Counted from the stretch's first letter, positions 2,799 to 29,483 are shown. The stretch is DNA of 32,000 nucleotides from Pirellula staleyi DSM 6068 (GCA_000025185.1 CP001848.1:3510001-3542000), one strand, 5' to 3'. A program made the numbers and translations. Notes: generated by a model from the letters alone, not told the origin.

Positions 2799-3446
2799 TT
2801 ATTTGCGAACGGGGGTGACGGCTGAGGCAAATCGATCGAGAAAATCATTCAGCCCGGCGAAGACCATATCTTCCATCTTGCGAATCCGAACGTTGATGCT
2901 GGCGACACAAATAGTCGCCGGAATGGCGATTGCCAGTCCGATAGCAGTGGTGATGAGCGCGAAGCTGATGTCGGACGCAAGTTGGTCGGGCTTCACGTTC
3001 GCCTCCGACGCCAGTTTGCCGAACGCTGCCATCATGCCGAGCACCGTTCCGAGGAGTCCCAGCATCGGCGCGGTTTTGATCACGTTGTTAATCCAGCTGA
3101 TGCGATGGTCGAGGTCACCGAGCACGTCGCGCTGGAATCGATCGACCACCAGTTCCTGAACTTTCGCCAGCCCTAGGTTGCGGCGCGAAATAGCAAGCAA
3201 GGCGAGCTGTGGCAGGGCTCGTCGATCGCCGTCACAAAGCGCAGCTGCTGATTCAAAGTCTTTCTTCTCGAGGGGGGCCTCGAGTGAAGCCAAGAACTCT
3301 TCCTGCTTCTTTTCCGATTTGAAACGGTTCTGACCGATCCGCATATACACCACCACAATGCAGTACGCACCCCAAAGTGCATCGATGGCCAAGGCCCCGT
3401 AAACGGTGTTACTAATGAAATCCCAGAAGAATGGATCGATATTCAT
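2799..3446 (-). CDS. exbB: MotA/TolQ/ExbB proton-channel family protein (215 aa)
   Basis: ATG start. Family motif APMLGLLGTVLGMMAAFGKLA ... SFALITTAIGLAIAIPATI. The topology looks like three TM helices. It lies directly upstream of two ExbD genes. Confidence 0.9.
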   Translation of the reverse strand: MNIDPFFWDFISNTVYGALAIDALWGAYCIVVVYMRIGQNRFKSEKKQEEFLASLEAPLEKKDFESAAALCDGDRRALPQLALLAISRRNLGLAKVQELVVDRFQRDVLGDLDHRISWINNVIKTAPMLGLLGTVLGMMAAFGKLASEANVKPDQLASDISFALITTAIGLAIAIPATICVASINVRIRKMEDMVFAGLNDFLDRFASAVTPVRK

Positions 3447-3622
3447 GCCAGGTGGTTTGCTTTGTAAAAGGTCCGACGAGTATTTCGGCGGAGCAGGTTA
3501 CGATGTGAGTTCGTCAAGGAGTTGGATCAGTTGTCGAGCGAGCAGAGGGAGCTAACAACAGGCTCGAGTGAGCCCCTTCGTCAGCTAAAAGAGCCAGGCA
3601 TGCGTGGACGAAAACGGTTCGA

Positions 3623-4546: not shown

Positions 4547-4676
4547 TACAACGTGTTTGAAAGAGTGGGGTTCGAAAAGAGTGCCTGTAACTTTAGTCAA
4601 GGAGCTAGTTGCCGGAGCCAAGCTCGATGGCCAGACGCTGTCATCCGTCTATGCTTGTTGCGAACTACGCTGCTTG

Positions 4677-6879: not shown

Positions 6880-9186
6880 ATGAGCAAGCGAAACTGGCGT
6901 GCATGGGCAAAACTAACCGGAACCTGGGCCCTAGCTGGGGCCGTGGTGACGGGGCAACTGGTCGGTTCGGCTCTGCCGCACGTGATGGCTCAGGAAGGTG
7001 CTGCGGCGGGCGAAGGTGCTCCAGCCGCTGGACCATCGAGCGGCCCTTCGGCCCTCGGCATTCGTCAACAGCGAGTGGAGCAACTGGTCGAGGAGCTCTC
7101 GCGGAAGTTCACCAGTCTGGCGATTTCGCTCCAAGAGAAAGAGCCCGAACGAGCCGAACGCCTGAAACAAACACTCGAAGCATCGAAGAAAATGCTCCTG
7201 CAAGAGCGGACCGGCGACATCACCAAACTGCTCGACGCTGCCCAACTCGGCAATGCTACGGAAAATCAGCAGCAACTGCTGAGCGACATTCGCAAACTGA
7301 TTTCGCTGCTGCTCGACGATCCCTCCGACAAAGAAAAAGATCGCGAGGAATTCGAGCGACTGAGCGAATGGAAAAAGCAGATCGAATCGATCATCGAGTC
7401 CGAGCGTGGCGAAAAGCGCGAGTCCGATCGCGTTTCGAACAAAGAACAAACGCTTGCTGCCATGGCGGCCCGCATTGCCGCTGTCGAAGCACTTTTAGAA
7501 AAACAAAAAGCGATCCTCGAGGCGACCGAATCGGTCCGCGCGGAAGGAATTCAAAAGCTCGGCCCCATCGCGGGGCAGCAAGCCGATACCCGAGAGCAAG
7601 CCGAAGCCATTTTGAAGGATATTGCCAAAGAAGCTGGCGATCAGGTTCCGGGCGAAGGTTCCGGAGAAGCTCCCAGTGGCTCCAAACCTGGAGAAGGCAA
7701 ACCTGGGGAAGGTAAACCTGGAGAAGGTAAACCTGGAGAAGGTAAACCTGGAGAAGGTAAACCTGGAGAAGGTAAACCTGGAGAAGGTAAACCTGGAGAA
7801 GGTAAACCTGGAGAAGGTAAGCCCGGAGAAGGTAAGCCCGGAGAAGGTAAGCCCGGAGAAGGTAAGCCCGGAGAAGGTAAGCCCGGAGAAGGTAAGCCCG
7901 GAGAAGGTTCGTCCGAAGGGGCGAGTGGCGGAGAGTCGGGAGGTCAGCAGGGGGGCCAGTCGGGCGAATCGGGAAGTCCCAAGCGTCCTAAGGAAGCGGG
8001 TGAACGTCCTCTGGAAGAGGCGGTAAAGAATCAACAAGCAGCTGAGAAAAACCTCGGTGAAGGAAAAGGCAAAGCAGCCACCCAAGACGAACAGTCGGCT
8101 GTCGACAACCTGCAGCGAGCGCTTGCGGAACTCAAGAAGGAAGAGAATCGCATCGCGTCGCTTCCTCCCGAAGCTTTTGAAAAGATGGCGCAAAAACAAG
8201 ACGACATCGCTGGCCAAACGGCCAAGCTCGACGACCAAATGAAAAAGGCTGGCGAGCAAGGAGGAGGGGAGCAAGGTGGCGGTGAGTCGGGCGGGGGAGA
8301 ATCTGGCGGCGGCCAGTCGGGTGGAGGCCAATCGGGCGGTGGTGAGCAAGCTGGCGGCAAGCAGCAACCGGGACAGCAGAAGGTCCAGCAAGCTCAGCAG
8401 CAGATGAAGCAAGCTTCGGGCGATCTCCGCAAGCAACAGCCGAAGGATGCTTCGCGTCAGCAGGGGAAGGCGATTCAAACGCTCGAAGAAGCGCTCCAAG
8501 AAATTGAAGAGCGTTTGGCTCAGCTGCGCGAAGAGACCCAAATCGAAAAGCTGGCGAAGCTGGAAGCTCGTTTCCGCGAGATTTTGGCCCGTCAGGAGGT
8601 TTCATCAGCCGACACGATCGGTTTTGAGACCAAGCGACTTGAACAAGGTGGTGAACTGAAGCGAACTGATCGGTTGGCTTTGGGTAAGGTGGCAGTGGAA
8701 GAGCGTGCTTTGGCGGAATTATCGCAGCAAACGCTCGACATCATTCTCGACGATGGCAGCAGCGTGGTGTTCCCGGATGTGGTTGCCCAGCTGCGCGACG
8801 ATTTGCTCGGGGTAGCGCAGCTGACCGACAGCAAACGAACCGATGCTTACACCCAGTCGCTACAAAAAGAGATCGAGCTGACGCTCGCCGAACTCATCGA
8901 AGCACTCCAAAAAGCGCAAGAGCAAAAGGAGAGTGAAGAGGGAGGGGGCGGCGGAGGAGGAGGTGGCGGCGGTGGTGAAGAACCACTTTTGCCAGGCTCT
9001 GCTGAGCTGAAACTGTTGCGCTCGGCTCAAATGCGTGTGAATCGCCGTACACAGTCGCTCGACACCGCCCGCGATCCCAAGGGGGAACTCCCCGACGATC
9101 TCAAGAGCCAAGTGCAGCAGATTTCGAACCGACAATCCGAAATCGGCGACATGACGATTCGAATTCTCGAGCGAGCATCGCAGTAG
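6880..9186 (+). CDS. Secreted 768-aa coiled-coil protein rich in Glu/Lys/Gln, with (GEGKP)14, (GGGxS)6 and Gly12 tracts; function unknown
   Basis: ATG start. Signal-peptide-like N-terminus WAKLTGTWALAGAVVTGQLVGSALPHVMAQE. Long heptad-like helical stretches are present, for example LLSDIRKLISLLL and IEERLAQLREETQIEKLAKLEARFREIL. Three Gly-rich tracts interrupt them. The C-terminal motif is LLPGSAELKLLRSAQMRVNRRTQSLD. Confidence 0.85.
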   Translation: MSKRNWRAWAKLTGTWALAGAVVTGQLVGSALPHVMAQEGAAAGEGAPAAGPSSGPSALGIRQQRVEQLVEELSRKFTSLAISLQEKEPERAERLKQTLEASKKMLLQERTGDITKLLDAAQLGNATENQQQLLSDIRKLISLLLDDPSDKEKDREEFERLSEWKKQIESIIESERGEKRESDRVSNKEQTLAAMAARIAAVEALLEKQKAILEATESVRAEGIQKLGPIAGQQADTREQAEAILKDIAKEAGDQVPGEGSGEAPSGSKPGEGKPGEGKPGEGKPGEGKPGEGKPGEGKPGEGKPGEGKPGEGKPGEGKPGEGKPGEGKPGEGKPGEGKPGEGSSEGASGGESGGQQGGQSGESGSPKRPKEAGERPLEEAVKNQQAAEKNLGEGKGKAATQDEQSAVDNLQRALAELKKEENRIASLPPEAFEKMAQKQDDIAGQTAKLDDQMKKAGEQGGGEQGGGESGGGESGGGQSGGGQSGGGEQAGGKQQPGQQKVQQAQQQMKQASGDLRKQQPKDASRQQGKAIQTLEEALQEIEERLAQLREETQIEKLAKLEARFREILARQEVSSADTIGFETKRLEQGGELKRTDRLALGKVAVEERALAELSQQTLDIILDDGSSVVFPDVVAQLRDDLLGVAQLTDSKRTDAYTQSLQKEIELTLAELIEALQKAQEQKESEEGGGGGGGGGGGGEEPLLPGSAELKLLRSAQMRVNRRTQSLDTARDPKGELPDDLKSQVQQISNRQSEIGDMTIRILERASQ
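7690..7899 (+). repeat. Perfect in-frame 15-bp tandem repeat, 14 units, encoding (GEGKP)14. It splits into two synonymous sub-blocks.
   Basis: Units of ggagaaggtaaacct fill 7690-7809. That is 8 units; the first has ggc and the second has ggg. Units of ggagaaggtaagccc fill 7810-7899 (6 units). A degenerate unit ggagaaggttcgtcc follows at 7900. Confidence 0.97.
8260..8349 (+). repeat. Degenerate 15-bp (pentapeptide) repeat, 6 units, encoding GGG[E/Q][S/Q]
   Basis: Read in frame: ggaggaggggagcaa, ggtggcggtgagtcg, ggcgggggagaatct, ggcggcggccagtcg, ggtggaggccaatcg, ggcggtggtgagcaa. A separate Gly12 run is encoded at 8941-8976. Confidence 0.85.
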
Positions 9187-9267: not shown

Positions 9268-10425
9268 ATGAGTAAGCGAAGTTTCGCAAAACCGACGTTA
9301 GGCTCCTTCGATTCGCTATTCGCGGGGCGATTTGTCCCGAAGCTCATCGCAGCCAGTGCCCTGATGGTGATGGGGATTTTGACGCTCCGGGCTACGGCCG
9401 AAGATCCGGTTCCTGCGAAACCAACGGCCAGTGAAGCGGTGATCGACAGTTTGTCGGCCTCGCTTTCGGCGAGCAAAACGTTGCCAGCCGATAGCGTGAA
9501 GGTGGCAGTGGAATTGCTGACTGCTCTCCGGAGTGATCCGCAAGCCCAGCCCATCGCTGTGACGGAAGCGCTGCGCGAAGTTTATCCGTCGTACAAAGAA
9601 GCTTTGGTGCTGCTGGGTGATGAAAACATTCCGGCGGCCATCGACAGCCTCACGGCTCTCAAAGCTTCCGAAGATCCGTATCTCGCCGCCGACGCCAGTT
9701 ACTATTTGGCTCGCGCTTATCTGCTGAGCGAACGATTTGAAGAGTCGATGCCACTCTTGAGCGAACTGCAAACCAAATATCAATCGCAAAGCGTTCGCGC
9801 GGGGGAGGCCTTGTTCCTCCAAGGTGTCGCGGAAGCTCAGATGCTCAATCGGCCCGCTGCGCTAGAGGCGCTTACCAAGTTTCTCGAGCAACACAAAGAT
9901 GCTCCCGAGCGGATGCGTGTGGGGGCGATGCGTCAGCTGGAAGAACTGAAGTTGCTCGAAGATGGCACGCTCAGCGACGTGCAGATGCGCATGAACTACA
10001 GCCGCCGCAAACTGGCCCTTGAAGACACCGGCGAAGTGACCCGCGAACAGCAAGCGAAGATTGTCGACATCCTGGCCAAGCTCATCAAAGAAGCGGAAGA
10101 GCGAGAATCGCAGGGAAAGGGTAGCGGCAAAGGAAAAGGCAAAGGGAAGGGAAAAGGCCAAGGCAAGGGTGGCGAAGGGGAAAGTGAAGGCCAAGGCGAG
10201 GGGCAAGGAGAAGGCCAAGGTGGACAATCGGGTGGCGGCAGCAAGGGAATCGATTCCGACGCCGTGAAGCGTTTGACGCGCGGTGGTCCTCAAAGCCCGT
10301 GGAGCCAACTCCGCGACAAGGAACGCGATCCCGTCTTCAGCGCGATCAAAGAAAAGTTTCCTGCTCGCTATCAGCAGTTGATTGAACAATACTATAAGAG
10401 CTTCCAGGACGACTCCGAAGGTTAG
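9268..10425 (+). CDS. Secreted or membrane-anchored TPR-repeat protein with a (GK)n/(GEGQ)n low-complexity tract (385 aa)
   Basis: ATG start with AAGGA upstream. Hydrophobic N-terminus LIAASALMVMGILTLRATA. TPR-like helices include YYLARAYLLSERFEESMPLLSELQTKY and ALFLQGVAEAQMLNRPAALEALTKFLEQH. The Gly tract is at 10114-10248. The C-terminal motif is FPARYQQLIEQYYKSF. Confidence 0.8.
   Translation: MSKRSFAKPTLGSFDSLFAGRFVPKLIAASALMVMGILTLRATAEDPVPAKPTASEAVIDSLSASLSASKTLPADSVKVAVELLTALRSDPQAQPIAVTEALREVYPSYKEALVLLGDENIPAAIDSLTALKASEDPYLAADASYYLARAYLLSERFEESMPLLSELQTKYQSQSVRAGEALFLQGVAEAQMLNRPAALEALTKFLEQHKDAPERMRVGAMRQLEELKLLEDGTLSDVQMRMNYSRRKLALEDTGEVTREQQAKIVDILAKLIKEAEERESQGKGSGKGKGKGKGKGQGKGGEGESEGQGEGQGEGQGGQSGGGSKGIDSDAVKRLTRGGPQSPWSQLRDKERDPVFSAIKEKFPARYQQLIEQYYKSFQDDSEG
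10114..10248 (+). repeat. Low-complexity coding tract GKGSGKGKGKGKGKGQGKGGEGESEGQGEGQGEGQGGQSGGGSKG, with 6-nt and 12-nt periodicity
   Basis: Read in frame from 10114: gga aag ggt agc ggc aaa gga aaa ggc aaa ggg aag ..., then ggc caa ggc gag ggg caa gga gaa ggc caa. Confidence 0.85.
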
Positions 10426-10469: not shown

Positions 10470-11798
10470 ATGAGTGGGCAACAAGCCGTGGCGACGCATT
10501 TGAGTCCCCGATTGTCGGGTGTTTTCCAGTCGAACATCGCTGCGAAACTTTCCGGATCGCCAGCTCGTCGTGTTATCGTCTCCGTGGTGGCGACCTTCAG
10601 TTTTGTGGCTACGTGTATCGGCGCTGCGAGCCATCTCCTTGCACAAGAGCCTGCATCCACCAAACCGCTGCTGAAGTTTGAAGTGCGGCTGATTTCCGGC
10701 GAGAAAATTGCCCCCGCGACACTCGAGATTGCAGCGGGACAAATCAAAAATGTTCCTCTCGCATCAGGGAGTAGGGATCTGCCGCTCGACGAGCTTTCGC
10801 GGATCACGATCAGTTCCTTGCGCGAGCCGACCAAAGCGTCGGGATCAGTTCAGGTTTATCTTCGGAATCAAGGCTTCCTCGCCGCGGAGTCGGTCACGAT
10901 TTCCGACGACGAGTTCCATCTCAAAACTGCTTTTGCCGAGTCGCTTGATCTGACGATCGATTTGGTGCGCGGAGTGGTTCTCAAGCCTGAAGCGGCCGAC
11001 GTCGTGCAGAAACTGATCAAAACCCCTTCGGCCGACAACGATCGGCTGATTGTGGCTGTCGATGACAAACTCGAAACGCTCGAAGGGCTGATCGTGAGTG
11101 TCTCGGCGACGGAAGTGAAATTCGAAATCGATGGGATGGAGAAGTCGCTCCCGTTCGACCGTCTCGCTGGAATCGTTGTGGCGCAGGCTCGTGCCGACGA
11201 TGAACCTGCTCGCCTCAAGCTCAAGCTCACAAGTGGCGAACTCGTGGCTGGCGAGTCGATGGAAGTATCGGAAGGCCTCGCCAGCTTGACGATCAGCGGC
11301 GATGCAAAACTCGAAATGCCGCTCGCTTCGATCAAAGAGATCGCCTACCGCTCATCGCAACTCGAATACCTTTCAGACCTGACGCCGAGCACAGTGTTCG
11401 AGCAGCCGGTGGTGACGCTCAAGCGTCCCTATCAAGTGGATCGAAGCGTCTCGGGAAAGCCGCTCAACATTGGGGGCACAATCTACGAGAAGGGAATCGG
11501 CGTGCATGCGATCAGCCGACTGACTTATCAAATCGAACCCGGTTTTGATCAGTTTGTGGTCGATGTGGGTCTCGATGCGGCGGCTGCCGGCAAGGGGAAT
11601 TGCATTTTTGTCGTGCTGGGGGATGGCCAGCAACTAGCGAGTGAAACGGTGCAAGGCAAAGATGCAGCACGCACGCTTCGTGTACCGATTCGCGGCGTTC
11701 GTGAGCTCACGATCGCCGTGGAGGCTGGGGAAGATCTCGATCTGGCCGATCACGCCAACTGGTGCGAAGCTCGGCTGCTGAAAGTGAAGTCCCCATAA
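10470..11798 (+). CDS. Secreted protein with four N-terminal beta-rich internal repeats and a C-terminal NPCBM (glycosyl-hydrolase-98-type carbohydrate-binding module-like) domain
   Basis: ATG start. Signal-like segment VIVSVVATFSFVATCIGAASHLLAQE. The C-terminus reads KGIGVHAISRLTYQIEPGFDQFVVDVGLDAAAAGKGNCIFVVLGDGQQL...VRELTIAVEAGEDLDLADHANWCEARLL. This matches the NPCBM pattern GIGVHA...F...VG.D....G...F.V..DG...L.L.V..........DHA.W..A.L. Confidence 0.8.
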   Translation: MSGQQAVATHLSPRLSGVFQSNIAAKLSGSPARRVIVSVVATFSFVATCIGAASHLLAQEPASTKPLLKFEVRLISGEKIAPATLEIAAGQIKNVPLASGSRDLPLDELSRITISSLREPTKASGSVQVYLRNQGFLAAESVTISDDEFHLKTAFAESLDLTIDLVRGVVLKPEAADVVQKLIKTPSADNDRLIVAVDDKLETLEGLIVSVSATEVKFEIDGMEKSLPFDRLAGIVVAQARADDEPARLKLKLTSGELVAGESMEVSEGLASLTISGDAKLEMPLASIKEIAYRSSQLEYLSDLTPSTVFEQPVVTLKRPYQVDRSVSGKPLNIGGTIYEKGIGVHAISRLTYQIEPGFDQFVVDVGLDAAAAGKGNCIFVVLGDGQQLASETVQGKDAARTLRVPIRGVRELTIAVEAGEDLDLADHANWCEARLLKVKSP

Positions 11799-11865: not shown

Positions 11866-13935
11866 ATGCAATCTCTCTACGTTGATTGTTGGCGGAAGTC
11901 GATAGCGGTGATCGCTGTTGCGTTCACTCTCTATCCTTCAATCGTGCTGGCTCAGTTTGGCCTGGATGACCTGAAGCTCCCCACGAAGAAGCCGGAAGTC
12001 ATCAAAGCACCTGTTACTGCCGCTCCACTATCGCGCGACGAACTGCTGGCGGTCAAGCAAGCGGAAGCAGCCCGTATTGCAGCGATCCAAGGAATTTACG
12101 GCAGCGTGGTTGCGATTTACGGCAACGATCGTGGCGGTGGTGGTTCCGGTGTGCTTTACGATGCGCATGGTTTTGCGATCACGAATCATCACGTCGTCGC
12201 AGCCGCCGGTGTCGAAGGTTGGGCAGGACTCGCTGATGGCAAACTCTATCGTTGGCGTCTTTTGGGGAGCGATCCGGGTGGCGACGTCGCCATCATTCAG
12301 CTCCTCGGTCGCAACGATTTCCCTGTCGCGCCGCTGGGCAACAGCGATCAGGTGCGCGTGGGGCAGTGGGCGATGGCGATGGGAAATCCTTTCGTTTTAG
12401 CCGAAGATCAGCGTCCCACAGTTACTCTCGGCATCGTGAGTGGTGTGAAGCGTTTTCAGCCGGGCGAAGGAATGAATCAACTCGTCTATGGCAACTGCAT
12501 TCAAGTCGATAGTTCGATCAACCCCGGCAACTCCGGTGGTCCCCTCTTCAACCTCCTCGGGCAAGTGATCGGAATCAATGGACGCGGCAGTTTCGAAGAA
12601 CGTGGTCGTGTGAACGTGGGGCTCGGATATGCCATCTCGTCGAATCAAGTGAAGCTATTCTTGCCCGATCTGCTGGCCACCAAGATTGCTCAGCATGGAA
12701 CGCTCGATGCGATTTTTGGCAACCGCGAGCAGGGGGTGGTTTGCTTTACGATGAACCTCGATTCGCCGATCGCGCGGAAAGGGCTCGCGCTCGGAGATCG
12801 CATTATTTCGCTCGAAGGAGAGCGAATTAACGACGCCAATCAGCTGACCAATTTGCTGTCGACCTACCCCGCTGGTTGGCCTGTCACGGTGGTGTTCGAT
12901 CACGAAGGGACCGAGAAGAAAGCGACGGTTCGCCTCACTCCACTGCCGTATGAGCCAATCGTCAAAACTCCTTCACCGATGCCTCAGCCGAAGGATGAAG
13001 AAAAACCAGCCCCCGGCGAAGGTGAAAAGACATCGTCATCGCGTCTCACCAGAGCGCTGCTAGATGAACCATCGAGCGAGCCCAAGCCCGCTGAAGAGCC
13101 CGCCCCGAAGTCCGACGACAAGCCGTCCGAAGAAAAGAAACCGGAAGAGCCTCAAGCGCCGTCCGATCCCAAACCCAAGATTGTGGAAGTCCCGCGTCAG
13201 CCTCCGATACCTTTGAGCAATGCGGGTAAGCCTCGGGCACCGCAGATTGGTAGCGAAGTTGCCAAGCTGCTGCTGCAGCGACTGCGAGATGCCGCAACTT
13301 CGAGCCCGACTTCAGAGCCCTGGGAAGCGATTCGCCTGGAGTCGGAGATTCTCGAGAATGGAGAAGTGGTCGGACGCGAGACGATGCTCATCGCTCGCGA
13401 TGGTCGATCGATGGTCACTTACACACGTGGTCTGGTGAGTGTCACCATCGCCTTTGATGGCAAGGTCTACCGCATGCAAAGCGGCGCGGAAGCTCCCCGC
13501 GAAGTGAGCTTTTCTCGAGCCTTTCGTGATTCACACTTTGCTTCGTCGGTGGCGCTGGCCACGCTCGTCAACACCTCCAATGATCCCCGTTTCGAAAAGG
13601 TCGCCCACGAAGGTTCCGATAAGGCCGCAGCTACGCTCGCGCACCGCCTGAGCATCGCCGCCGACGATAGCGAGTCGCTCTACTTCTACCTCAAGGTGCT
13701 GGCAGACAACGGCACTCCCACCAGTGGACTGCTCAAGACCAGTGTCGGTACGAGCGATGAAGAGCCGATTCCTTCGATGCTTTACCGAGACGAAAAGGCC
13801 ATTGCATCGGTTCGGCTTCCGCACGAGCGGGTTCTCGTACGAGGACTCGATGAGCAAGTGCTGGCCACGATTCGTACCACTAGTGCCGAAACTGTTGCGA
13901 AGGTCGAGGAGGGTTCGTTCGATGTCACTCCTTAG
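11866..13935 (+). CDS. HtrA/DegP-like (S1C) trypsin-fold serine protease with a PDZ domain, a Pro/Glu/Lys linker and a C-terminal domain of about 230 aa with unknown function. The catalytic triad is intact.
   Basis: Signal peptide IAVIAVAFTLYPSIVLAQ. His motif GSGVLYDAHGFAITNHHVV, with His at 12190-12192. Asp motif GGDVAIIQL, with Asp at 12283-12285. Ser motif NPGNSGGPLFN, with Ser at 12532-12534. PDZ-like segment GLALGDRIISLEGERINDANQL. Confidence 0.9.
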   Translation: MQSLYVDCWRKSIAVIAVAFTLYPSIVLAQFGLDDLKLPTKKPEVIKAPVTAAPLSRDELLAVKQAEAARIAAIQGIYGSVVAIYGNDRGGGGSGVLYDAHGFAITNHHVVAAAGVEGWAGLADGKLYRWRLLGSDPGGDVAIIQLLGRNDFPVAPLGNSDQVRVGQWAMAMGNPFVLAEDQRPTVTLGIVSGVKRFQPGEGMNQLVYGNCIQVDSSINPGNSGGPLFNLLGQVIGINGRGSFEERGRVNVGLGYAISSNQVKLFLPDLLATKIAQHGTLDAIFGNREQGVVCFTMNLDSPIARKGLALGDRIISLEGERINDANQLTNLLSTYPAGWPVTVVFDHEGTEKKATVRLTPLPYEPIVKTPSPMPQPKDEEKPAPGEGEKTSSSRLTRALLDEPSSEPKPAEEPAPKSDDKPSEEKKPEEPQAPSDPKPKIVEVPRQPPIPLSNAGKPRAPQIGSEVAKLLLQRLRDAATSSPTSEPWEAIRLESEILENGEVVGRETMLIARDGRSMVTYTRGLVSVTIAFDGKVYRMQSGAEAPREVSFSRAFRDSHFASSVALATLVNTSNDPRFEKVAHEGSDKAAATLAHRLSIAADDSESLYFYLKVLADNGTPTSGLLKTSVGTSDEEPIPSMLYRDEKAIASVRLPHERVLVRGLDEQVLATIRTTSAETVAKVEEGSFDVTP

Positions 13936-14959
13936 TCGAAAACTGGCGACTTCACTCTTTGTGCTAGGTGCGATCGCAAGTTTCGCAGGGATATCCCCCA
14001 TGTCTCTCGTGGCTGCTGATGCGGCGGCTGAAGTGGGAGAGGAATTCGCCGCTGGGGTCGCTTTTGCTCAGCAGCGAACGGTCAAAATTTATGGTGGTGG
14101 CATTGGCAGAACTCCAGGCTATGCCAGCGGAATCATTGTTTCTTCGGAAGGGGAAATTGTGACCGCCAGTGGCGCGCTGCTCGCCGCGGATAGCTTGCGA
14201 GTGACGCTTCCCAATGGGCAAACTTTTCCCGCTCAAGTACTCCGCCGTAGTTTGCCACTCCAGCTCGTGATGCTCAAAATCGATGCCTCCACACCCGAGT
14301 ATTTCGATTTGAAAGCAGCCTCGACAATCGAAACCGGGGATTGGGTGCTCGCCGTCAGTAATGCCTTCAAAGTGGCTGAAGGCGCGGAACCCTTGAGTGT
14401 GAATATCGGCGTCCTTTCGCTACGCACGAAGCTGACAGCTCGTCGCGGCTATGTCGATTTTCCGTACGAAGATGAAGTGTTTTTGATCGATGCCATCACT
14501 AGTAATCCAGGAGCAGCCGGTGGAGCTGTCGTTGATGTCGAGGGGAAAGTCGTCGGCATGATTGGCAAGGTGATCGAGAGCAAGAACACCGGAACCCGTC
14601 TGAATTATGCTGTGCCTGCCGATCTGATTGCAGCCTTCGCAAGTGGACAAGAGACATCGCCTGCCGCCGATCCGGCACCTTCCTCGAACGAAAAAGGTGA
14701 GCTGGGAATCCGCCTCTTTGCACTCGGGGGTCGTAAGGGACCGGCTTACGTCGATCGAGTTCTTCCGGGATCTCCCGCTGCTGAAGCGGGTGTGAAAGTC
14801 GATGATCTTGTGGTGGCGATTAATGGCGATGTGGTGCGCGATAGCTCCGATTTTCAGAAGCTCATCAGTGGCATCGCGGCGGGTAGCGAAGTGACGATTG
14901 ACGTGAAGCGTCGCAATGAACTCTTGCAGCTGCGAGTTACTGCAGCCCCGATGAGGTAG
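13922..14959 (+). CDS. HtrA-like trypsin-fold + PDZ protein lacking all three catalytic residues (predicted pseudoprotease, 345 aa)
   Basis: The likely start is the ATG at 13922 (MSLLSRKLATSLFVLGAIASFAGISPMSLVAADA, signal-like). It overlaps the upstream stop by 14 nt. The track ORF start at 13724 lies inside the upstream gene. Fold motifs are kept: ASGIIVSSEGEIVT, GDWVLAVSN, VDVEGKVVGMIG. The triad positions are changed: TASGAL in place of TNxHVV (Gly at 14171-14173), QLVMLKI in place of DxAxxx (Gln at 14261-14263), and GAAGGA in place of GNSGGP (Ala at 14516-14518). PDZ-like segment GSPAAEAGVKVDDLVVAINGDVV. Confidence 0.85.
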   Translation: MSLLSRKLATSLFVLGAIASFAGISPMSLVAADAAAEVGEEFAAGVAFAQQRTVKIYGGGIGRTPGYASGIIVSSEGEIVTASGALLAADSLRVTLPNGQTFPAQVLRRSLPLQLVMLKIDASTPEYFDLKAASTIETGDWVLAVSNAFKVAEGAEPLSVNIGVLSLRTKLTARRGYVDFPYEDEVFLIDAITSNPGAAGGAVVDVEGKVVGMIGKVIESKNTGTRLNYAVPADLIAAFASGQETSPAADPAPSSNEKGELGIRLFALGGRKGPAYVDRVLPGSPAAEAGVKVDDLVVAINGDVVRDSSDFQKLISGIAAGSEVTIDVKRRNELLQLRVTAAPMR

Positions 14960-14966
14960 TCTTTCG

Positions 14967-16241
14967 ATGCTACGGTATACGATCTTCGTCGTTGGTCTGC
15001 TGGGAGCGTGCATCGCGAACGCCGATGAACCGGCTCCTGCTGCAAGTTCGACTCCTGCAACTGCCTCTACGGAAGCAGCACCTGCGCCGAGCCTGATCAC
15101 ACGCGGCGTGCTTTTGGCACCGAAGGCGTTTCGCCAGGTGGCGGCGAGCATTCGCCCGTCGCTGGTGATGATCGAGAGCTTTGGTGGTCTCAATGCTGGT
15201 GAAGGTGTTTCGAACCTCGCCGCCGATGGACCAACCACTGGACTCATCATTTCGTCGGATGGTTACATCATCACGAGCACGTTCAATTTTTTGCGCAAGC
15301 CGCCGATCATCACGATCACACTGGCGGATGGCAGACGTAAAGTGGCAACACTGCTTGGGCGCGACGAAACTCGTAAGCTCTGTTTGCTCAAAATCAACGA
15401 TGTTTCGGATCTTCCAGTTCCAACTTTTGCTCCGCGCGAGGAAGTTCGCGTGGGTCAGTGGGCTGTCGCCGTGGGATTTGGTTTCGGTGACAAAGAGCCA
15501 TCGCTTACTGCCGGTATTATTTCGGCTGAGAGTCGCATTTCAGGTCGCGCCTTACAGACCGACGCGAATCTGAGTCCCGCGAACTATGGTGGCCCACTGC
15601 TCGACATCGATGGCCGTTTGCTCGGCATTTGTGTCCCTCTTGCGCCGGGTGCTAAAGATGTGGCTGCTGGTGCTGAGTGGTACGATTCGGGAATTGGATT
15701 TGCCGTGCCGCTGGGTGAGATCGCTCCCATCATCGAAGCGATGAAAGCAGGCAAGACGCTGGTTCCCGGTTACCTTGGCATCCAGCCTGCTCCCTCGGGC
15801 AATCCACCGTCGGGTGCCGAAGTCGGTAGTGTGAAAGAGAAGTCTCCTGCAGAAGCGGCAGGACTGAAGGCAGGGGATAAACTCCTCAAGATTGGCGACA
15901 TTGAAGTGCTTGATGTTGCTCACTTGTCGACGGTGGTCGGACGCTACGTGGCGGGTGATAAGATTACGATTCTCGTCCGCCGAGGCGAACAAGAGCTCAC
16001 GATCGAAGCTGTGCTGGGTGAGGTTCCGCCACCACCTCCTCCGATGCCGATGCCTCAGCCGGGTGAAGCGGCAAAACCTGCTGAAGGGAAGCCAGCCGAG
16101 GGGAAACCTGCTGAGGAAAAGCCTGCCGGAGAGAAACCCGCGGAAGCTCCAGCGGGCGAAGAGGCACCAGCGGAGAAAAAGCCAGTGGAGGCTCCTCCGA
16201 CAGAAGAAGCCCCCACTGAGAATTCGGACTCGCCGAAATAG
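14967..16241 (+). CDS. HtrA-like trypsin-fold + PDZ protein lacking all three catalytic residues, with a C-terminal Pro/Ala/Glu/Lys-rich tail (predicted pseudoprotease, 424 aa)
   Basis: ATG start with signal peptide MLRYTIFVVGLLGACIANA. Fold motifs are kept: TTGLIISSDGYIIT, GQWAVAVG, LDIDGRLLGI. The triad positions are changed: TSTFNF (Phe at 15282-15284 in place of His), KLCLLKI (Lys at 15375-15377 in place of Asp), and ANYGGP (Tyr at 15585-15587 in place of Ser). PDZ-like segment KSPAEAAGLKAGDKLLKIGDIEV. Confidence 0.85.
   Translation: MLRYTIFVVGLLGACIANADEPAPAASSTPATASTEAAPAPSLITRGVLLAPKAFRQVAASIRPSLVMIESFGGLNAGEGVSNLAADGPTTGLIISSDGYIITSTFNFLRKPPIITITLADGRRKVATLLGRDETRKLCLLKINDVSDLPVPTFAPREEVRVGQWAVAVGFGFGDKEPSLTAGIISAESRISGRALQTDANLSPANYGGPLLDIDGRLLGICVPLAPGAKDVAAGAEWYDSGIGFAVPLGEIAPIIEAMKAGKTLVPGYLGIQPAPSGNPPSGAEVGSVKEKSPAEAAGLKAGDKLLKIGDIEVLDVAHLSTVVGRYVAGDKITILVRRGEQELTIEAVLGEVPPPPPPMPMPQPGEAAKPAEGKPAEGKPAEEKPAGEKPAEAPAGEEAPAEKKPVEAPPTEEAPTENSDSPK
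16074..16148 (+). repeat. Degenerate 15-bp (pentapeptide) repeat, 5 units, encoding KPAEG-like units
   Basis: Read in frame: aaacctgctgaaggg, aagccagccgagggg, aaacctgctgaggaa, aagcctgccggagag, aaacccgcggaagct. Confidence 0.7.
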
Positions 16242-16374: not shown

Positions 16375-16407
16375 AAACTCGCTCGTGCTTTGTCTTGTGC
16401 GAGTTTT
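16375..16407 (+). terminator. Possible weak intrinsic terminator downstream of the six-gene cluster
   Basis: Inverted repeat AAACTCGC (16375-16382) and GCGAGTTT (16399-16406) with a 16-nt loop. The 3' arm runs into TTTT. It lies 134 nt after the stop at 16241 and upstream of pyc. The long loop and short GC stem make it weak. Confidence 0.3.
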
Positions 16408-16529
16408 CGGCGGAAATGCCCAGCGAAATCGGATCGGCGACAGCGTCGCGACTCGCCTGTTTCATCATCACCTCTCCACGCCGCTGGTCGAGTCAGCTTG
16501 CTGCTCTCCCTGCGCGATCTAGCGATACC

Positions 16530-19500
16530 ATGAAAAAGATTACCAAGCTGCTCGTTGCCAACCGCAGCGAGATTGCGATTCGTGTATTTCGCAGTGCCCA
16601 TGAACTCGGTATTCGTACGGTGGCGATCTATGCCTACGAAGATCGATTCGCTCTGCATCGCTTCAAGGCAGACGAAGCGTATCAAGTGGGTGGCACAGGG
16701 GAACCGATTCGTGCGTATCTGAATATCGCCGCGATCATCGCGATTGCTCAGCAGCACGGTGTCGACGCGATTCATCCGGGCTATGGTTTTCTTTCGGAGA
16801 ATCCCGATCTTGCGCGGGCTTGCGAAAAGGCCGGGATCACCTTTGTCGGCCCGCATGTCGACGCACTCGTCAACCTGGGAGATAAGACCTTTGCTCGCAA
16901 CATTGCGATGAAGGCCGATGTTCCTGTGCTGGGGGGAAGCGATTCGATCACCTCTCCCGAGCAGGGATTGAAACTCGCTGCGAAACTGGGTTACCCCATC
17001 ATTCTGAAAGCGGCTAAAGGTGGTGGTGGTCGCGGCATGCGAGTGGTGGCGAGCGAACGCGATTTTGTGACGCAGCTTGAGCAAGCCCAGCGAGAATCGC
17101 TCTCGGCGTTTGGCAGCCCCGATGTGTTCATCGAAAAATTCATCACTCGCGCTAGTCACATTGAAGTGCAGTTGCTCGGCGACAAGCATGGCAATCTGGT
17201 GCATTTGTGGGAACGAGATTGCTCGGTTCAGCGGCGGCATCAGAAGGTGGTCGAAATCGCTCCTGCGCCGAATCTGCCAGGCGATGTGCGGCAGGCATTG
17301 TGCGATGCTGCGATTCGGATCGGCAAAGCCGTGAAGTATGAAAACGCAGGAACGGTCGAGTTTCTTGTCGATCGTTTATCGGGACAGTTCTATTTCATTG
17401 AAGTGAACCCACGCATTCAGGTCGAACATACGGTGACCGAAGAGGTGACCGGTATCGACATCGTCAAGAGTCAGATTCTGATCGCACAAGGAACACCGCT
17501 GGCTGATCCCGAGATTGGTCTCGCCTCGCAAGAGGGAGTGAAGACCAACGGTTTTGCGATGCAGTGCCGCGTGACGACCGAAGATCCTACGAACAATTTC
17601 ATGCCCGATTATGGGCGGATTTCGCACTACCGTTCAGCAGCTGGGCTCGGTATTCGTCTGGATGCCGGGACAGCATTTTCCGGTGCGACAGTGAATCCGT
17701 TCTACGATTCGTTGCTGGTGAAGGTGAGCGCTCGTGGTCGACGTTTCATCGATGCCGCACATCGTATGGAACGCTGCCTGCAAGAGTTTCGCATTCGAGG
17801 TGTGAAGACCAATATCCCCTTTTTGATTCAGCTCATCACTCACCCGGCGTTCTTGGCGGGTGAATGCACCACACGTTTCATCGACGAAACTCCCGATCTG
17901 TTTGAGCTTCCGCGCCGGCGAAATCGCGCGACACGTTTGCTGAGCTATCTCGGCGAGATTGCCGTGAATGGCAATCCACTCGTGAAGGGTCTCCCCAAAG
18001 CGATGCGGCGCAGTCCTGCGCCGGTTCCAAAATTCGACAACACCGCAGCCGTTCCCGAGGGGAGTCGTGATCGACTCAAAGAACTGGGACCGGAGAAGTT
18101 TGCGCAGTGGATTCTCAAGCAAAAAGCATTGCTGCTGACCGACACGACGTTCCGCGACGCACACCAGTCGCTGCTGGCAACGCGGTTTCGAACGAAGGAT
18201 CTGCTGAATGTTGCCGAGGCCTATGCGCATTTAGCGAGTGACCTGTTTTCGCTGGAAATGTGGGGGGGAGCGACGTTCGATACGTCGATGCGTTTCCTCA
18301 AAGAATGCCCCTGGCAGCGTCTCGCCGATATGCGCGAGAAAGTTCCCAACATCTGTTTTCAGATGCTGTTTCGCGCTTCGAATGCAGTGGGCTACTCGAG
18401 CTATCCGGACAATATCGTGCGCGAGTTCTGTAGTGAAGCGACGGCAGCGGGGATGGATATTTTCCGCATCTTCGACGCGCTCAATTTCCTCCCCAACATG
18501 CGTGTGGCGATGGAAGCAGTGCAGAAGGCAGGTGGTGTTTGCGAGCCTGCGATCTGCTACACCGGCGATATCCTGAATCCAGCGCGATCGAAGTACGACC
18601 TGAAGTACTACGTCGAACTTGCGAAAGAGCTTGAGAAGTCGGGCGCACATATTCTGGCCATCAAAGACATGGCCGGTTTGTGCAAGCCGTACGCCGCTGA
18701 GCTTCTCGTGAAAACGCTGAAGCAAGAGATCGGTATACCGATTCATTTCCACACGCATGACACGGCGGGAATGCAAGCCGCGTCGATTCTGAAGGCGGCA
18801 GAAGTGAAGCTAGACATCGCCGATGGCGCGATGGCATCGATGTCGGGAGGGACAAGTCAGCCGAATCTCAACGCGATCATCGAGGGGCTCCGCTTCGGCA
18901 AGCGTGATACGAATTTATCAGCCGAGCATTTCAGTCAGATTTCCGACTATTGGCAATCGGTGCGCGAGTTCTACACACCCTTCGACGGTGTGATGCTTCC
19001 AGCGACGGCGGAACTTTACAGCCACGAAATGCCGGGTGGTCAGTACACCAATCTCTATCAGCAGGCTCGTGCACTGGGACTCTCGGAGCGATGGCCAGAG
19101 ATCTGCAAAATGTACGCGGAAGTGAATCAACTCCTGGGTGATATTGTGAAAGTGACGCCGACCTCGAAAGCGGTGGGCGATCTCGCTTTGTTTATGGTCG
19201 CGAATTCACTTTCGAGCGAAGACGTGGTGTATGGCGATCGTGAACTCGCGTTTCCTGATTCGGTGATCGATCTGGTGAGTGGCATGATGGGGCATCCACC
19301 AGGTGGTTTTCCCAAAGCAGTGCAGAAGCGAATTCTGCGCGACAAGAAACCTGTGAAAGGACGCCCTGGAGCGAGCCTTCCACCAGCCGATTTCACGGCA
19401 GCTTCGGAGAAAGTGCAGAAGCTGATCGGACGCGAGCCGAGTATGCGTGATGTGCTGTCGTACCTCTTGTACCCGAAAGTTTATGAGGAATTTGCAGCAC

Positions 19501-19970
19501 ATCAGCGTAAGTACTCGAGCACGAGCAATCTCCCGACTCCCGTCTTCTTCTACGGGCAAGAGACTGGTGAAGAGATTGGCGTGGATATCGAAGAAGGTAA
19601 GACGCTGATCATCAAGTTCCTGACGATTAGCGAGCCCCATGCTGATGGGACCCGGACCGTTTTCTTCGAGCTCAATGGTCAGCCTCGTGATGTGACGGTG
19701 ACCGATCTTTCGCTCGAAGCAAGTTCGGCCAAGGCGCTGAAGGCAAATCCAGGCGTTCCAGGGCAAGTTGGGGCTAGCATGCCGGGGATGGTGGTGACGG
19801 TGGCAGTGAGCGTGGGCGATACCGTGGCCAAGGGACAGAAGCTACTTTCGCTCGAGGCGATGAAGATGGAAACGACCGTCAACAGTGAAATAGAAGGTCG
19901 TGTGTCGGAAGTGCTTGTGAAACCTGGCAGCCGCGTGGAAGCGGGCGATCTGATGCTCGTGATTTCGTAG
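16530..19970 (+). CDS. pyc: Pyruvate carboxylase, single-chain (biotin carboxylase + carboxyltransferase + biotinyl carrier domains), 1146 aa
   Basis: The start is taken at the ATG at 16530 (MKKITKLLVANRSEIAIRVFRSAHELGIRTVAIY), which is the canonical biotin-carboxylase N-terminus. ATP-grasp motif KAAKGGGGRGMRVV. Biotin-carboxylase core motif FIEVNPRIQVEHTVTE. The carboxyltransferase TIM-barrel region contains LLLTDTTFRDAHQSL and HFHTHDTAGM. The C-terminal biotinylation motif is SLEAMKMETTV. The track ORF start at 16395 adds 45 residues that resemble no pyruvate carboxylase. Confidence 0.97.
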   Translation: MKKITKLLVANRSEIAIRVFRSAHELGIRTVAIYAYEDRFALHRFKADEAYQVGGTGEPIRAYLNIAAIIAIAQQHGVDAIHPGYGFLSENPDLARACEKAGITFVGPHVDALVNLGDKTFARNIAMKADVPVLGGSDSITSPEQGLKLAAKLGYPIILKAAKGGGGRGMRVVASERDFVTQLEQAQRESLSAFGSPDVFIEKFITRASHIEVQLLGDKHGNLVHLWERDCSVQRRHQKVVEIAPAPNLPGDVRQALCDAAIRIGKAVKYENAGTVEFLVDRLSGQFYFIEVNPRIQVEHTVTEEVTGIDIVKSQILIAQGTPLADPEIGLASQEGVKTNGFAMQCRVTTEDPTNNFMPDYGRISHYRSAAGLGIRLDAGTAFSGATVNPFYDSLLVKVSARGRRFIDAAHRMERCLQEFRIRGVKTNIPFLIQLITHPAFLAGECTTRFIDETPDLFELPRRRNRATRLLSYLGEIAVNGNPLVKGLPKAMRRSPAPVPKFDNTAAVPEGSRDRLKELGPEKFAQWILKQKALLLTDTTFRDAHQSLLATRFRTKDLLNVAEAYAHLASDLFSLEMWGGATFDTSMRFLKECPWQRLADMREKVPNICFQMLFRASNAVGYSSYPDNIVREFCSEATAAGMDIFRIFDALNFLPNMRVAMEAVQKAGGVCEPAICYTGDILNPARSKYDLKYYVELAKELEKSGAHILAIKDMAGLCKPYAAELLVKTLKQEIGIPIHFHTHDTAGMQAASILKAAEVKLDIADGAMASMSGGTSQPNLNAIIEGLRFGKRDTNLSAEHFSQISDYWQSVREFYTPFDGVMLPATAELYSHEMPGGQYTNLYQQARALGLSERWPEICKMYAEVNQLLGDIVKVTPTSKAVGDLALFMVANSLSSEDVVYGDRELAFPDSVIDLVSGMMGHPPGGFPKAVQKRILRDKKPVKGRPGASLPPADFTAASEKVQKLIGREPSMRDVLSYLLYPKVYEEFAAHQRKYSSTSNLPTPVFFYGQETGEEIGVDIEEGKTLIIKFLTISEPHADGTRTVFFELNGQPRDVTVTDLSLEASSAKALKANPGVPGQVGASMPGMVVTVAVSVGDTVAKGQKLLSLEAMKMETTVNSEIEGRVSEVLVKPGSRVEAGDLMLVIS

Positions 19971-20018
19971 TCGTTGATTGGTTCGCTCTCGCGGGGAGCA
20001 ATCGGGTAGCTGAATTCG

Positions 20019-20819
20019 ATGGAACTTGCTGCACTCGAGTCGCTGATCAAACGTGGGCTCATCGCCGATCTGCACTACTTTGCTAAGATCGGCTCGACCA
20101 ATTCGTATGCTCTAAGTCAGGCGGTTGATGACACCCAAAAGTGTCCGCTCCTAGTCGCAGCTCGAGAGCAGACGGCTGGTCGAGGACGTGGCGCCAATCG
20201 TTGGTGGTCGAGTGATGGTTGCCTGATGTTCTCGCTGCTGCTCGACTGCACCGACTGGCTCCCAACCTCGAAATGGCCACTCCTTTCGCTAGTGACCGGC
20301 ATTTCGATCGCTCAGACTATCGAGCAGCTGATCCCGGGGGATGTCGTCGGCGTGAAGTGGCCCAACGATGTTTATCTGGCGGGTCGCAAAGTGGCCGGGA
20401 TCTTGATTGAGACGTCGGCAGCAGCTTCCGGTCGCTTGGTGGTCGGGATTGGACTGAACGTGAACAACTCGGTCGCAACTGCCCCAGCTGATATTCAAGC
20501 CCGTGCTGTTGCACTCGTAGACCGCTCGAGTGCAAGGTGGACACTAGAACTCGTGCTCGAGCGGCTCGTCGAGCGGCTCATCACTAACTGGCAACGGCTT
20601 GGCGAACAGGGTTTCGAGTCGTTCTACCGCGATTGGCCCCGCTACTGCATTCTCTCGGGAGCTATCGTGACGATCCGCCCCCAAGCTCAACATAGTGAGG
20701 CGACTGTTATAGGACGGGCCCTGGGAATCGATGAAGCCGGGTGTCTCGTTGTCGAAACCACTGGTGGTCCGATCCATTTAGCAGGGGGGAGTGTCGAGCA
20801 GTTCAGCTGGCCCAGTTAA
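20019..20819 (+). CDS. birA: Biotin--[acetyl-CoA-carboxylase] ligase, class I (no N-terminal HTH repressor domain), 266 aa
   Basis: ATG start. Motifs GRGRGANRWWSSDG (the GRGRxGRxW type) and VKWPNDVYLAGRKVAGILIE. The protein opens directly with the catalytic domain. It lies 48 nt downstream of the biotin-dependent pyruvate carboxylase. Confidence 0.9.
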   Translation: MELAALESLIKRGLIADLHYFAKIGSTNSYALSQAVDDTQKCPLLVAAREQTAGRGRGANRWWSSDGCLMFSLLLDCTDWLPTSKWPLLSLVTGISIAQTIEQLIPGDVVGVKWPNDVYLAGRKVAGILIETSAAASGRLVVGIGLNVNNSVATAPADIQARAVALVDRSSARWTLELVLERLVERLITNWQRLGEQGFESFYRDWPRYCILSGAIVTIRPQAQHSEATVIGRALGIDEAGCLVVETTGGPIHLAGGSVEQFSWPS

Positions 20820-21240: not shown

Positions 21241-22263
21241 GTGTGCGTTCGAAATCTCCTGGCTAGTTCCACGAACTCGCAAGGCAAGGGGCAGGGTGTG
21301 ACCAAGGACCGTCTCTTTACCACCAAGCAAGTCGCCGATGCGATTGGCGTGAGCGAATCGTCGCTCAAGCGCTGGTGCGATCAAGGATTAGTGACTACGT
21401 GCCGAACCGGCGGTGGTCATCGACGGATTCCCCAAGATGCAGTGGTGGCTTTCCTGCGATCGAGCGGTCATGCGCTGGTGCGTCCCGATGTGCTGCAACT
21501 CCCCGCGCTACCCCAGCGAGGAACATTGCGCTGTGAGACTTTGCGGCCGGTATTTCTCGATGCGATCATTGCTGCTGATCGCGCCAAATGTCGCGAAGTG
21601 ATGCTCAGTTTGTATCTTTCGGGGATCAGCGTCGCTGCGATCTGCGACGACCTGATCACCCCCACCATGTATCGCATTGGCGAACTGTGGGAGTGCGGCG
21701 ACGTCGAAGTGTTCCAGGAGCGGCGTGGTTGCGAAATGTGCGAAGAGGTGATCGGCGATCTGGTGAAGATCATCCCTTCGCCAGCCAGTTCAGCTCCTCT
21801 GGCGATCGGCGCGACGCCGGAGGGAGACTACTACCGGATTGCGACAAAGATGGTCGAGGCGACCCTGAAGGCGGCCGGTTTTCGCGCGATGAACCTGGGG
21901 AGCTCGCTGCCATTTTCGACGCTCGTAGCATCGGTCGAAATGCTACGCCCGACACTGTTTTGGCTGAGTGCTTCGTTCATCGTCGATCACGAAAAGTTCG
22001 TAGCCGACTATCAAGAGTTTCAGCGACAAACGAGTGGTCTGGCCGCGATTGCCGTGGGTGGGCAAGCTCTTACGGCACCGATTCGAACCCGCATTGTCTA
22101 TGCCACGTTTGGCGAAACGATGCGGCATCTCGACAACTATGCACAAACGCTTTTCGCGGTGCAGCAGCGGCACGATCTGCCGGCGGCAAGTGGGGTCGAT
22201 ATCTCAGCGGCTATCGAAACGTCGCATGCCGAAGTTAGCAGCGCGGTCTCGAGTCGGTCGTAA
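21241..22263 (+). CDS. Transcriptional regulator: excisionase/MerR-type HTH fused to B12-binding_2 and B12-binding-like (Rossmann) domains, CarH/LitR-like architecture
   Basis: HTH segment LFTTKQVADAIGVSESSLKRWCDQGLVTTCRTGGGHRRIPQDAVVAFL. Helical-bundle part DDLITPTMYRIGELWECGDVEVFQERRG. Rossmann part PLAIGATPEGDYYRIATKMVEATLKAAGFRAMNLGSSLP ... AIAVGGQAL. The start is ambiguous: GTG at 21241, or GTG at 21298 preceded by AAGGGGCAGG. Confidence 0.75.
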   Translation: MCVRNLLASSTNSQGKGQGVTKDRLFTTKQVADAIGVSESSLKRWCDQGLVTTCRTGGGHRRIPQDAVVAFLRSSGHALVRPDVLQLPALPQRGTLRCETLRPVFLDAIIAADRAKCREVMLSLYLSGISVAAICDDLITPTMYRIGELWECGDVEVFQERRGCEMCEEVIGDLVKIIPSPASSAPLAIGATPEGDYYRIATKMVEATLKAAGFRAMNLGSSLPFSTLVASVEMLRPTLFWLSASFIVDHEKFVADYQEFQRQTSGLAAIAVGGQALTAPIRTRIVYATFGETMRHLDNYAQTLFAVQQRHDLPAASGVDISAAIETSHAEVSSAVSSRS

Positions 22264-23741: not shown

Positions 23742-23790
23742 CGGATCAGGCTTTGGATAAAGGCGTCGCGAAGTTGAACTGGTGGCAAGT

Positions 23791-29477: not shown

Positions 29478-29483
29478 CGACGG

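Follow-up and report, generated by a model that had tools for sequence, protein, structure and literature searches.

The HtrA proteases DegP, DegS and HTRA1/2 are textbook homo-oligomers, and their allostery has been studied with artificial mixed trimers. Dead paralogs at fixed positions beside active ones occur in other self-compartmentalising proteases, such as the ClpP-ClpR rings of cyanobacteria and plastids and the beta ring of the eukaryotic 20S proteasome. Here, we analysed a 32,000-nucleotide stretch of DNA from Pirellula staleyi DSM 6068 (GCA_000025185.1 CP001848.1:3510001-3542000), referred to as the window, in which the gene of an intact HtrA-like protease (A) is directly followed by the genes of two HtrA-like pseudoproteases (B and C). 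All positions are counted from the first letter of the window. Judged from gene order, natural gene fusions and structure prediction, A, B and C are probably the subunits of one periplasmic, pseudo-threefold HtrA heterotrimer of 1:1:1 stoichiometry, in which A would provide the sole active site.

Plant DEG7 carries one active and one degenerated protease domain per chain and trimerises through the degenerated domain; the same study mentions ClpR and describes HtrA proteases as homo-oligomers built from trimers (PMC3194040). DEG7 of plants and Nma111p of fungi resemble the planctomycete set in that a live HtrA module precedes a dead one that is kept for non-catalytic protein-protein interaction, an order that is also found in the A-B fusions described below. 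They differ in carrying four PDZ domains, two per half, whereas each planctomycete module has one, and in joining two domains in one chain, whereas the planctomycete set comprises three modules (one live and two distinct dead ones) that are encoded by separate genes in the window and are fused in every adjacent combination in relatives. There is no specific sequence kinship between the two systems; the planctomycete set is bacterial and predicted to be periplasmic, and its live module is joined to a LolA-like domain. While DEG7 homotrimerises via its dead domain, a single-chain model of the planctomycete proteins suggests packing within one chain.

A dead paralog with an active HtrA partner is also known from magnetotactic bacteria, in which MamO, a degenerate HtrA-family protein, promotes MamE activity non-catalytically, and pseudoproteases have arisen repeatedly by duplication (PMC4794232). 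MamO retains His and Asp, with Thr at the nucleophile position, has a metal-binding protease domain and needs its TauE domain for MamE activation, whereas in B and C all three triad residues are replaced. Pfam searches revealed no domain beyond Trypsin_2 and PDZ in B and C, and hence no TauE-like domain, and the NCBIfam MamO model scored 41 and 27 bits on B and C, respectively, against a cut-off of 800. Neither a fusion nor a heterotrimer is reported for MamO-MamE. ClpP-ClpR and the 20S proteasome differ from the planctomycete set in having other folds, heptameric rings and ATP-dependent partners. An earlier reading of this DNA, made from the sequence alone (the sequence-only reading), had pointed to plant Deg5-Deg8, which is a hetero-oligomer of different HtrA paralogs in the thylakoid lumen (structures in PMC3640471). 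Deg5 and Deg8 both keep the triad, and their complex consists of stacked homotrimers, not of mixed trimers; the comparison thus appears loose, and DEG7/Nma111, MamO-MamE and ClpP-ClpR would be the closer analogies. DegS-RseB and AlgW-MucB combine a PDZ-gated HtrA protease with a LolA-like sensor of lipid or lipopolysaccharide, and RseB and MucB are matched in fold by the C-terminal domain of A. In Escherichia coli, however, RseB is a separate protein that binds RseA and not the protease, while in A the LolA-like domain lies within the protease chain; no gene of an RseA-like anti-sigma factor or of a sigma factor was found in the cluster. Full-text literature searches returned no description of a planctomycete A-B-C system. 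While the principle of dead paralogs in protease complexes is already known, a native three-paralog HtrA with one active site, which is conserved phylum-wide and has been sampled in one to three chains, represents a novel form.

The three genes lie on the plus strand. A (11866-13935) encodes 689 amino acids comprising a signal peptide, the protease domain (residues 93-237), a PDZ domain (residues 285-357), a Pro/Glu/Lys-rich linker and a C-terminal domain. B (13922-14959; 345 amino acids) and C (14967-16241; 424 amino acids) both begin with a signal peptide, which is followed by a dead protease domain and a PDZ domain; the PDZ loop is a canonical ELGI in B and YLGI in C, and C ends in a tail rich in Pro, Ala, Glu and Lys. 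The ATG of B at 13922 overlaps the stop of A by 14 nt, and C starts 7 nt past the stop of B; the gene call for B is backed by a 345-amino-acid database protein (P0001) of 99% identity. In the Pfam profile search, all three proteins were recovered as Trypsin_2 plus PDZ_2 proteins, in agreement with the sequence-only reading, with Trypsin_2 E-values of 1e-30 (A), 1e-18 (B) and 1e-25 (C) and PDZ_2 scores of 34.5, 54.7 and 48.7 bits, respectively, at a cut-off of 27. Matches to DegP, DegQ and DegS chains were obtained with phmmer at E 1e-20 to 1e-29. The best NCBIfam model for each protein was TIGR02037 (degP_htrA_DO), scoring 193 bits for A, 160 for C and 116 for B against a full-length cut-off of 416; all three are outside the curated Do subfamily, and no NCBIfam equivalog model was reached. 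Hydrophobic N-terminal signal-like segments were present in A, B, C and their orthologs, as had been proposed for the window. A lipoprotein nature of C, considered from an LLGAC motif in the window, was ruled out, since the Cys is not kept in orthologs.

The central claim of the sequence-only reading was that every triad residue is replaced in B and C. The motifs on which it rested were confirmed, with TNHHVV at residue 106, GDVAIIQL at 139 and GNSGGP at 221 of A, TASGAL at 81, QLVMLKI at 114 and GAAGGA at 197 of B, and TSTFNF at 103, KLCLLKI at 137 and ANYGGP at 205 of C. The triad of A is kept as His109 (codon at 12190-12192), Asp140 (12283-12285) and Ser223 (12532-12534). Residue-by-residue HMMER alignments to DegP and DegQ chains revealed that in B, His is replaced by Gly84 (14171-14173), Asp by Gln114 (14261-14263) and Ser by Ala199 (14516-14518), and that in C, the replacements are Phe106 (15282-15284), Lys137 (15375-15377) and Tyr207 (15585-15587). 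The oxyanion-hole Gly of C is also altered (PANYGGP versus PGNSGGP). The alignments to the solved DegP and DegQ chains and the joint alignment of orthologs from 38 genomes agree in these columns, which upholds the full replacement and rules out a register shift that would restore the triad in B or C. This ortholog set comprises 38 loci, one genome per species, labelled as Pirellulaceae, Anatilimnocola sp. NA78 (a complete genome), Mariniblastus, Phycisphaeraceae/Phycisphaera and two 'Alcaligenaceae' metagenome assemblies, which are probably mis-binned. By their aligned sequences, B and C are assigned as non-peptidase homologues of the HtrA/DegP family (MEROPS S1C), and A, with its complete triad, as a predicted peptidase of this family.

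In other species, the three modules are found fused to one another. Read from DNA, A and B form one open reading frame (ORF) of 917 and 914 amino acids in L031 and L032, respectively, in which the B part is devoid of a signal peptide, and B and C form one ORF of 725 amino acids in L034, where the C part is without a signal peptide. Among the best 120 matches of an A-B fusion query were 65 A-B fusion clusters (670-1120 amino acids; 36-100% identity to the query), one A-B protein with the B match split in two, and two A-B-C fusions, namely P0171 (1227 amino acids) and P0147 (1203 amino acids, ending at a contig end), which are 37% identical to each other and were counted as independent. A B-C fusion query yielded 17 B-C fusion clusters with the triad columns GQA in B and FNY or FKY in C. 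Only adjacent, same-order fusions were seen: the order was A, B, C in every case, and wherever A was present, module 1 carried H/D/S and the later modules were dead. At the fusion junctions, the maximum 12-residue hydropathy was 0.7-1.8, compared to 2.2-2.7 in the N-termini of free B proteins, revealing no signal-peptide stretch. In a tree of B modules, fused and unfused forms were interspersed, implying repeated fusion or fission. Four layouts occur in the same genomic context, that is, three separate genes in the window, an A-B fusion followed by C (L040, L041), A followed by a B-C fusion (L042) and an A-B-C fusion after the NPCBM protein gene (L039). An origin of the fusions from gene calling or frameshifts was ruled out by the 65 + 17 + 2 clusters, which come from independent sources at 36-99% identity, and by the DNA of L031, L032 and L034, which contains neither a stop codon nor an N, with junctions lacking a signal peptide. 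Following Rosetta-stone reasoning, these same-order, adjacent fusions argue for one complex that contains A, B and C in equal numbers.

Gene order is conserved in the loci, too. The order that is fixed across Planctomycetota is coiled-coil protein, TPR protein, NPCBM protein, A, B and C, with all six genes present in 21 of the 38 loci. B is immediately preceded by A in 35 of the 38 loci and immediately followed by C in 36, the exceptions being contig ends and one clade. The NPCBM protein gene is the next gene upstream of A in nearly all loci; in L040 it directly precedes the A-B fusion, and in L039 the A-B-C fusion. The coiled-coil protein gene holds the same position in 21 of the 38 loci and, at 29% identity, in L040; the TPR protein gene is syntenic in related loci and in L040, the genes of which have 4-nt start/stop overlaps. 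As A, B and C are made together with the NPCBM, TPR and coiled-coil proteins from a six-gene operon, the system probably serves a cell-envelope process. In L040 (L040:1-8004), the operon is longer, with two extra genes (~770 and ~700 amino acids, no Pfam match) preceding those of the coiled-coil, TPR and NPCBM proteins. In the exceptional clade, a B-C fusion (L034:9770-12118; L043:8001-10127) is located near a sulfatase gene and PSCyt/PSD1 or a giant TPR gene.

For structure prediction with AlphaFold2, residues 28-1227 of P0171 (1200 amino acids, without the signal peptide) were used together with an alignment of 75 natural fusions, in which the modules had been checked to be in register. The model of the A-B-C chain had a mean predicted local distance difference test (pLDDT) score of 83.7 and a predicted template modelling (pTM) score of 0.85, with low-confidence residues only in linkers. 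Since the largest rigid module accounts for about a quarter of the chain, this pTM value implies that the modules are confidently placed relative to one another. A Foldseek search with the model returned single-module HtrA matches only, each module resembling DegP, DegS or Rv0983 with target-normalised template modelling (TM) scores of 0.7-0.8. A hetero-oligomer of A with B and C, as suggested by the sequence-only reading, is strongly supported by the invariant A-B-C order, the start/stop overlaps, the recurrent fusions and the pTM of P0171. Its interpretation as a heterotrimer is indirect and is based on the natural fusions, the single-chain model and the three distinct modules, which match the number of subunits of an HtrA trimer and have a fixed order.

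The best-conserved stretches of B are GDWVLAVSNAFKVAxGAEPLSV, ARRGxxDFPY and IDAITSNPGAAGGA. From the DegP/DegQ alignment, we take the first to be the LD-loop region and the second to be the L3-loop region. An LD insertion is common to A (VLAEDQRP) and B (KVAEGAEP). In DegS, DegP and HtrA2, ligand binding at the PDZ domain or L3 is relayed via LD to L1/L2 of the neighbouring subunit. PDZ-protease crosstalk in trans has been found with engineered HtrA2 heterotrimers (bioRxiv 10.1101/2021.10.04.462974). Both B and C have a canonical PDZ carboxylate-binding loop of the type x-hydrophobic-Gly-hydrophobic (xLGI). The corresponding loop of A (12700-12720; residues ~279-282) reads TLDA, with Asp for the usual Gly in 31 of 33 unfused A proteins.

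Taken as a mechanism, the ABC unit would replace the trimer that ordinary HtrA proteases form from three identical chains, with cleavage by A alone. The trypsin fold is retained in B and C, as are the trimer-forming body, the regulatory loops LD and L3 and canonical peptide-binding PDZ domains, and their active sites are filled by Gly/Gln/Ala and Phe/Lys/Tyr, respectively. Two thirds of the trimer body would come from B and C, together with two PDZ domains for ligand binding and the L3/LD relay that sets the state of the active site of A. B and C would act as scaffold and, in addition, as sensors or for the capture of substrates, turning this single site on or off. We infer here the trimer geometry, the stoichiometry, the direction of regulation, and the ligands and substrates of the ABC assembly.

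Several observations weigh against the heterotrimer. A pTM of 0.85 fits the canonical HtrA trimer or some other compact packing, and the AlphaFold2 model may echo trimer contacts learned from homotrimers. The Asp-for-Gly replacement in the PDZ loop of A is not universal, as some A-B fusion lineages keep Gly, and a general rule of a degenerate PDZ domain in A and good ones in B and C holds in part only. For the three proteins encoded upstream of A, sequence searches of Pfam, NCBIfam and PDB yielded no more than NPCBM and TPR matches and, below threshold, DUF4175 and YbgF matches, with no hint as to a role. In the clade of L034 and L043, the B-C fusion stands beside a sulfatase gene, with no A, NPCBM, TPR or coiled-coil protein gene within 8-10 kb; here, either A is located elsewhere in the genome, or B-C can be encoded independently of A and perhaps also function without it. 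Finally, the trimerisation of DEG7 through its degenerated domain (PMC3194040) provides a precedent for a different architecture, in which dead B and/or C would homotrimerise (B3, C3) and hold several A units in an A3B3C3-type particle. The live-then-dead order of the A-B fusions and the equal stoichiometry that fusions impose would fit this scaffold too. We consider it unlikely, because a single A-B-C chain was modelled as a confident assembly, which would be unexpected if contacts were formed only between chains, and because three different modules in fixed order correspond to the subunit number of the HtrA trimer. In addition, the best 60 matches of an A-B fusion to solved chains did not include a chain with two protease domains; the nearest were bacterial DegP and HtrA, implying that the likeness to DEG7 is convergent.

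Protease-dead DegP (S210A) keeps chaperone activity. With the canonical PDZ loops of both B and C, and with one clade encoding its B-C fusion away from any nearby A, it might be argued that B and C work on their own in the periplasm, as non-proteolytic chaperones, holdases or PDZ adaptors that are co-regulated with A and not bound to it. This is rather improbable, given that 65 A-B and two A-B-C fusion clusters place A in the same polypeptide, that the genes overlap in a fixed order and that the A-B-C chain was modelled as one assembly. An explanation that differs from the proposed heterotrimer in sign only is that B and C are dominant-negative subunits, blocking or diluting the sites of A until they are displaced or degraded. 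The bulky Phe106 and Tyr207 at the catalytic positions of C would be in line with this role, and inactive subunits lower the activity of engineered HtrA2 heteromers (bioRxiv 10.1101/2021.10.04.462974). The permanent covalent A-B and A-B-C fusions of many lineages, however, ill suit a removable partner, and we regard this explanation as very improbable.

Conservation was analysed in the orthologs from the loci and in database homologs. The search with B yielded >750 homologs, from which residue counts were taken for the best 120 (55-99% identity, with B 55-65% identical across them). In this set, Gly was found at the first triad column in 119 of 121 sequences, Gln at the second in 110 and Ala at the third in 103. 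A minority of the B orthologs have Ser at the nucleophile column, with His and Asp still missing. Among the orthologs from the loci, the triad columns of A read H/D/S without exception; those of B read G/Q/A, with Pro as an alternative third residue, and those of C read F or Tyr, then K or R, then Y. No deviation from the triad of A was seen in 31-33 orthologs or in 68 fusion proteins. In C, the motifs TSTFNF and PANYGGP are nearly invariant, and so are the stretches LQTDANxSPANYGGPL and EWYDSGIGFAVP. In total, the substitute residues of the dead modules are kept in >150 orthologs and are common to lineages as distant as Pirellulaceae and Phycisphaerae-labelled genomes, and the ORFs of B and C are intact in 36-38 genomes. 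The ratio of nonsynonymous to synonymous substitution rates (dN/dS), determined according to Nei-Gojobori for pairs with unsaturated dS (0.4-1.3), was 0.08-0.18 for A, 0.06-0.12 for B and 0.06-0.19 for C, revealing purifying selection on both pseudoproteases, for which dN/dS had been proposed as a measure by the earlier reading. B and C are constrained at least as much as the live A. The maintained non-catalytic function that the sequence-only reading had favoured over decay is borne out by the conserved substitute residues, the intact ORFs and the low dN/dS. A neutral decay of duplicates, for which the loss of the whole triad in both B and C might speak, is refuted by ORFs that are intact in all genomes examined, by dN/dS of 0.06-0.19 and by the conservation of the substitute residues across distant lineages.

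B and C had also been described as tandem paralogs. This is correct with regard to adjacency, but not in the sense of a recent duplication: the pairwise identity of A/B, A/C and B/C is only 23-28%, and the three are, thus, paralogs of ancient origin. The C ortholog of the most distant lineage, represented by the two assemblies labelled 'Alcaligenaceae' (L037:1352-3460; L038:11257-13359), has ~700 amino acids and carries a second PDZ domain as well as, at its C-terminus, a domain resembling alpha/beta-hydrolases (weak Peptidase_S9 match). The expected GxSxG elbow of the latter seems to be GMGNGG, so that this could be a second dead hydrolase in one chain.

The C-terminal domain of A (residues 430-689; 13153-13932) had no sequence match in Pfam, NCBIfam or PDB. 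Its AlphaFold2 model, obtained with 25 sequences, had a pLDDT of 88.7 and a pTM of 0.83, and a Foldseek search against PDB identified NE2245 of the LolA superfamily (E 3e-8, TM 0.5-0.57, probability 1.00). DUF1329, LolA3, LolB, RseB, MucB and LolA were also matched with a probability of 1.00, where the non-RseB members of the LolA superfamily scored better. The domain is, thus, predicted to be an unclosed beta-barrel with a helical lid, i.e., a LolA-superfamily fold (LolA/LolB/RseB-MucB-like). Many A-B fusions keep it between the PDZ domain of A and B, and short-linker fusions have lost it. As modelled, an HtrA protease joined to such a domain suggests that lipids or lipoproteins are sensed, and hydrophobic ligands (acyl chain, lipoprotein or lipid) would be a second input to the ABC assembly. 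Only tentatively, we propose an obligate heterotrimeric HtrA of Planctomycetota, in which A would be gated in trans by two dedicated pseudoprotease sensors that differ in PDZ specificity and by a built-in sensor of lipids or lipoproteins of the LolA/RseB type. One particle would then unite the functions of DegS and RseB and serve as the envelope-stress or envelope-assembly checkpoint of a phylum whose cell envelope is unusual, with the NPCBM, TPR and coiled-coil proteins as substrates or as anchoring platform.

The three upstream genes of the cluster are on the plus strand, too, and encode exported proteins. The coiled-coil protein (6880-9186; 768 amino acids) is of low complexity, with a near-perfect tandem repeat of 15 nt x 15 (7684-7908; 97% matches) that translates to (GEGKP)n. 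Its well-conserved C-terminal part (8317-9183) has a sub-threshold DUF4175 match (E 8e-5; 21 bits at a cut-off of 27). The TPR protein (9268-10425; 385 amino acids) has a TPR_16 match, a Gly/Lys/Glu-rich segment and a weak YbgF/CpoB-like match below the cut-off (E 9e-4). Similar Gly/Lys/Glu-rich repeats recur elsewhere in the cluster, at 10126-10220 within the TPR protein and at 16074-16146 within the C-terminal tail of C. The NPCBM protein (10470-11798; 442 amino acids) carries a C-terminal NPCBM/NEW2 domain (E 3e-35).

The window is planctomycete DNA of ~57% G+C with PSCyt1/PSCyt2/PSD1 and DUF1501 gene pairs. Upstream of the cluster, a divergent set on the minus strand (1225-6455) comprises the genes of a HEAT-repeat/squalene-cyclase-like protein (4677-6455), a 332-amino-acid ORF (3623-4621), ExbB/TolQ (2799-3446) and a long ExbD/TolR (1225-2232). 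None of these genes is kept beside the cluster in other loci, and a link of the cluster to the ExbB/ExbD and HEAT/prenyl-cyclase-like genes was, therefore, rejected. Downstream (16395-20819), a pyruvate carboxylase gene (1191 amino acids by the longest ORF, the real start being probably further downstream) is directly followed by that of a BirA-like biotin-protein ligase; the two are located downstream of the cluster in only some relatives. Further on are a MerR-type helix-turn-helix regulator with B12-binding domains (21241-22263) and, on the minus strand at 22302-26373 and 27981-31844, two gene pairs of PSCyt/PSD1 (DUF1549/DUF1553) plus DUF1501, as are typical of planctomycetes.

If the proposed heterotrimer is correct, it would be the first native asymmetric HtrA, with three co-evolving gene products in the three positions of the trimer, one of them catalytic. 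Sensing, scaffolding and catalysis would be split among chains, and the trans-activation relay could be tested without engineered heteromers. The natural A-B-C chains are ready constructs for structural work. The system would be a clear bacterial addition to the list of complexes with fixed dead paralogs that includes ClpP/ClpR, the proteasome beta ring and DEG7. Both the LolA-like domain and the conserved operon suggest a so far uncharacterised function in the envelope of Planctomycetota.

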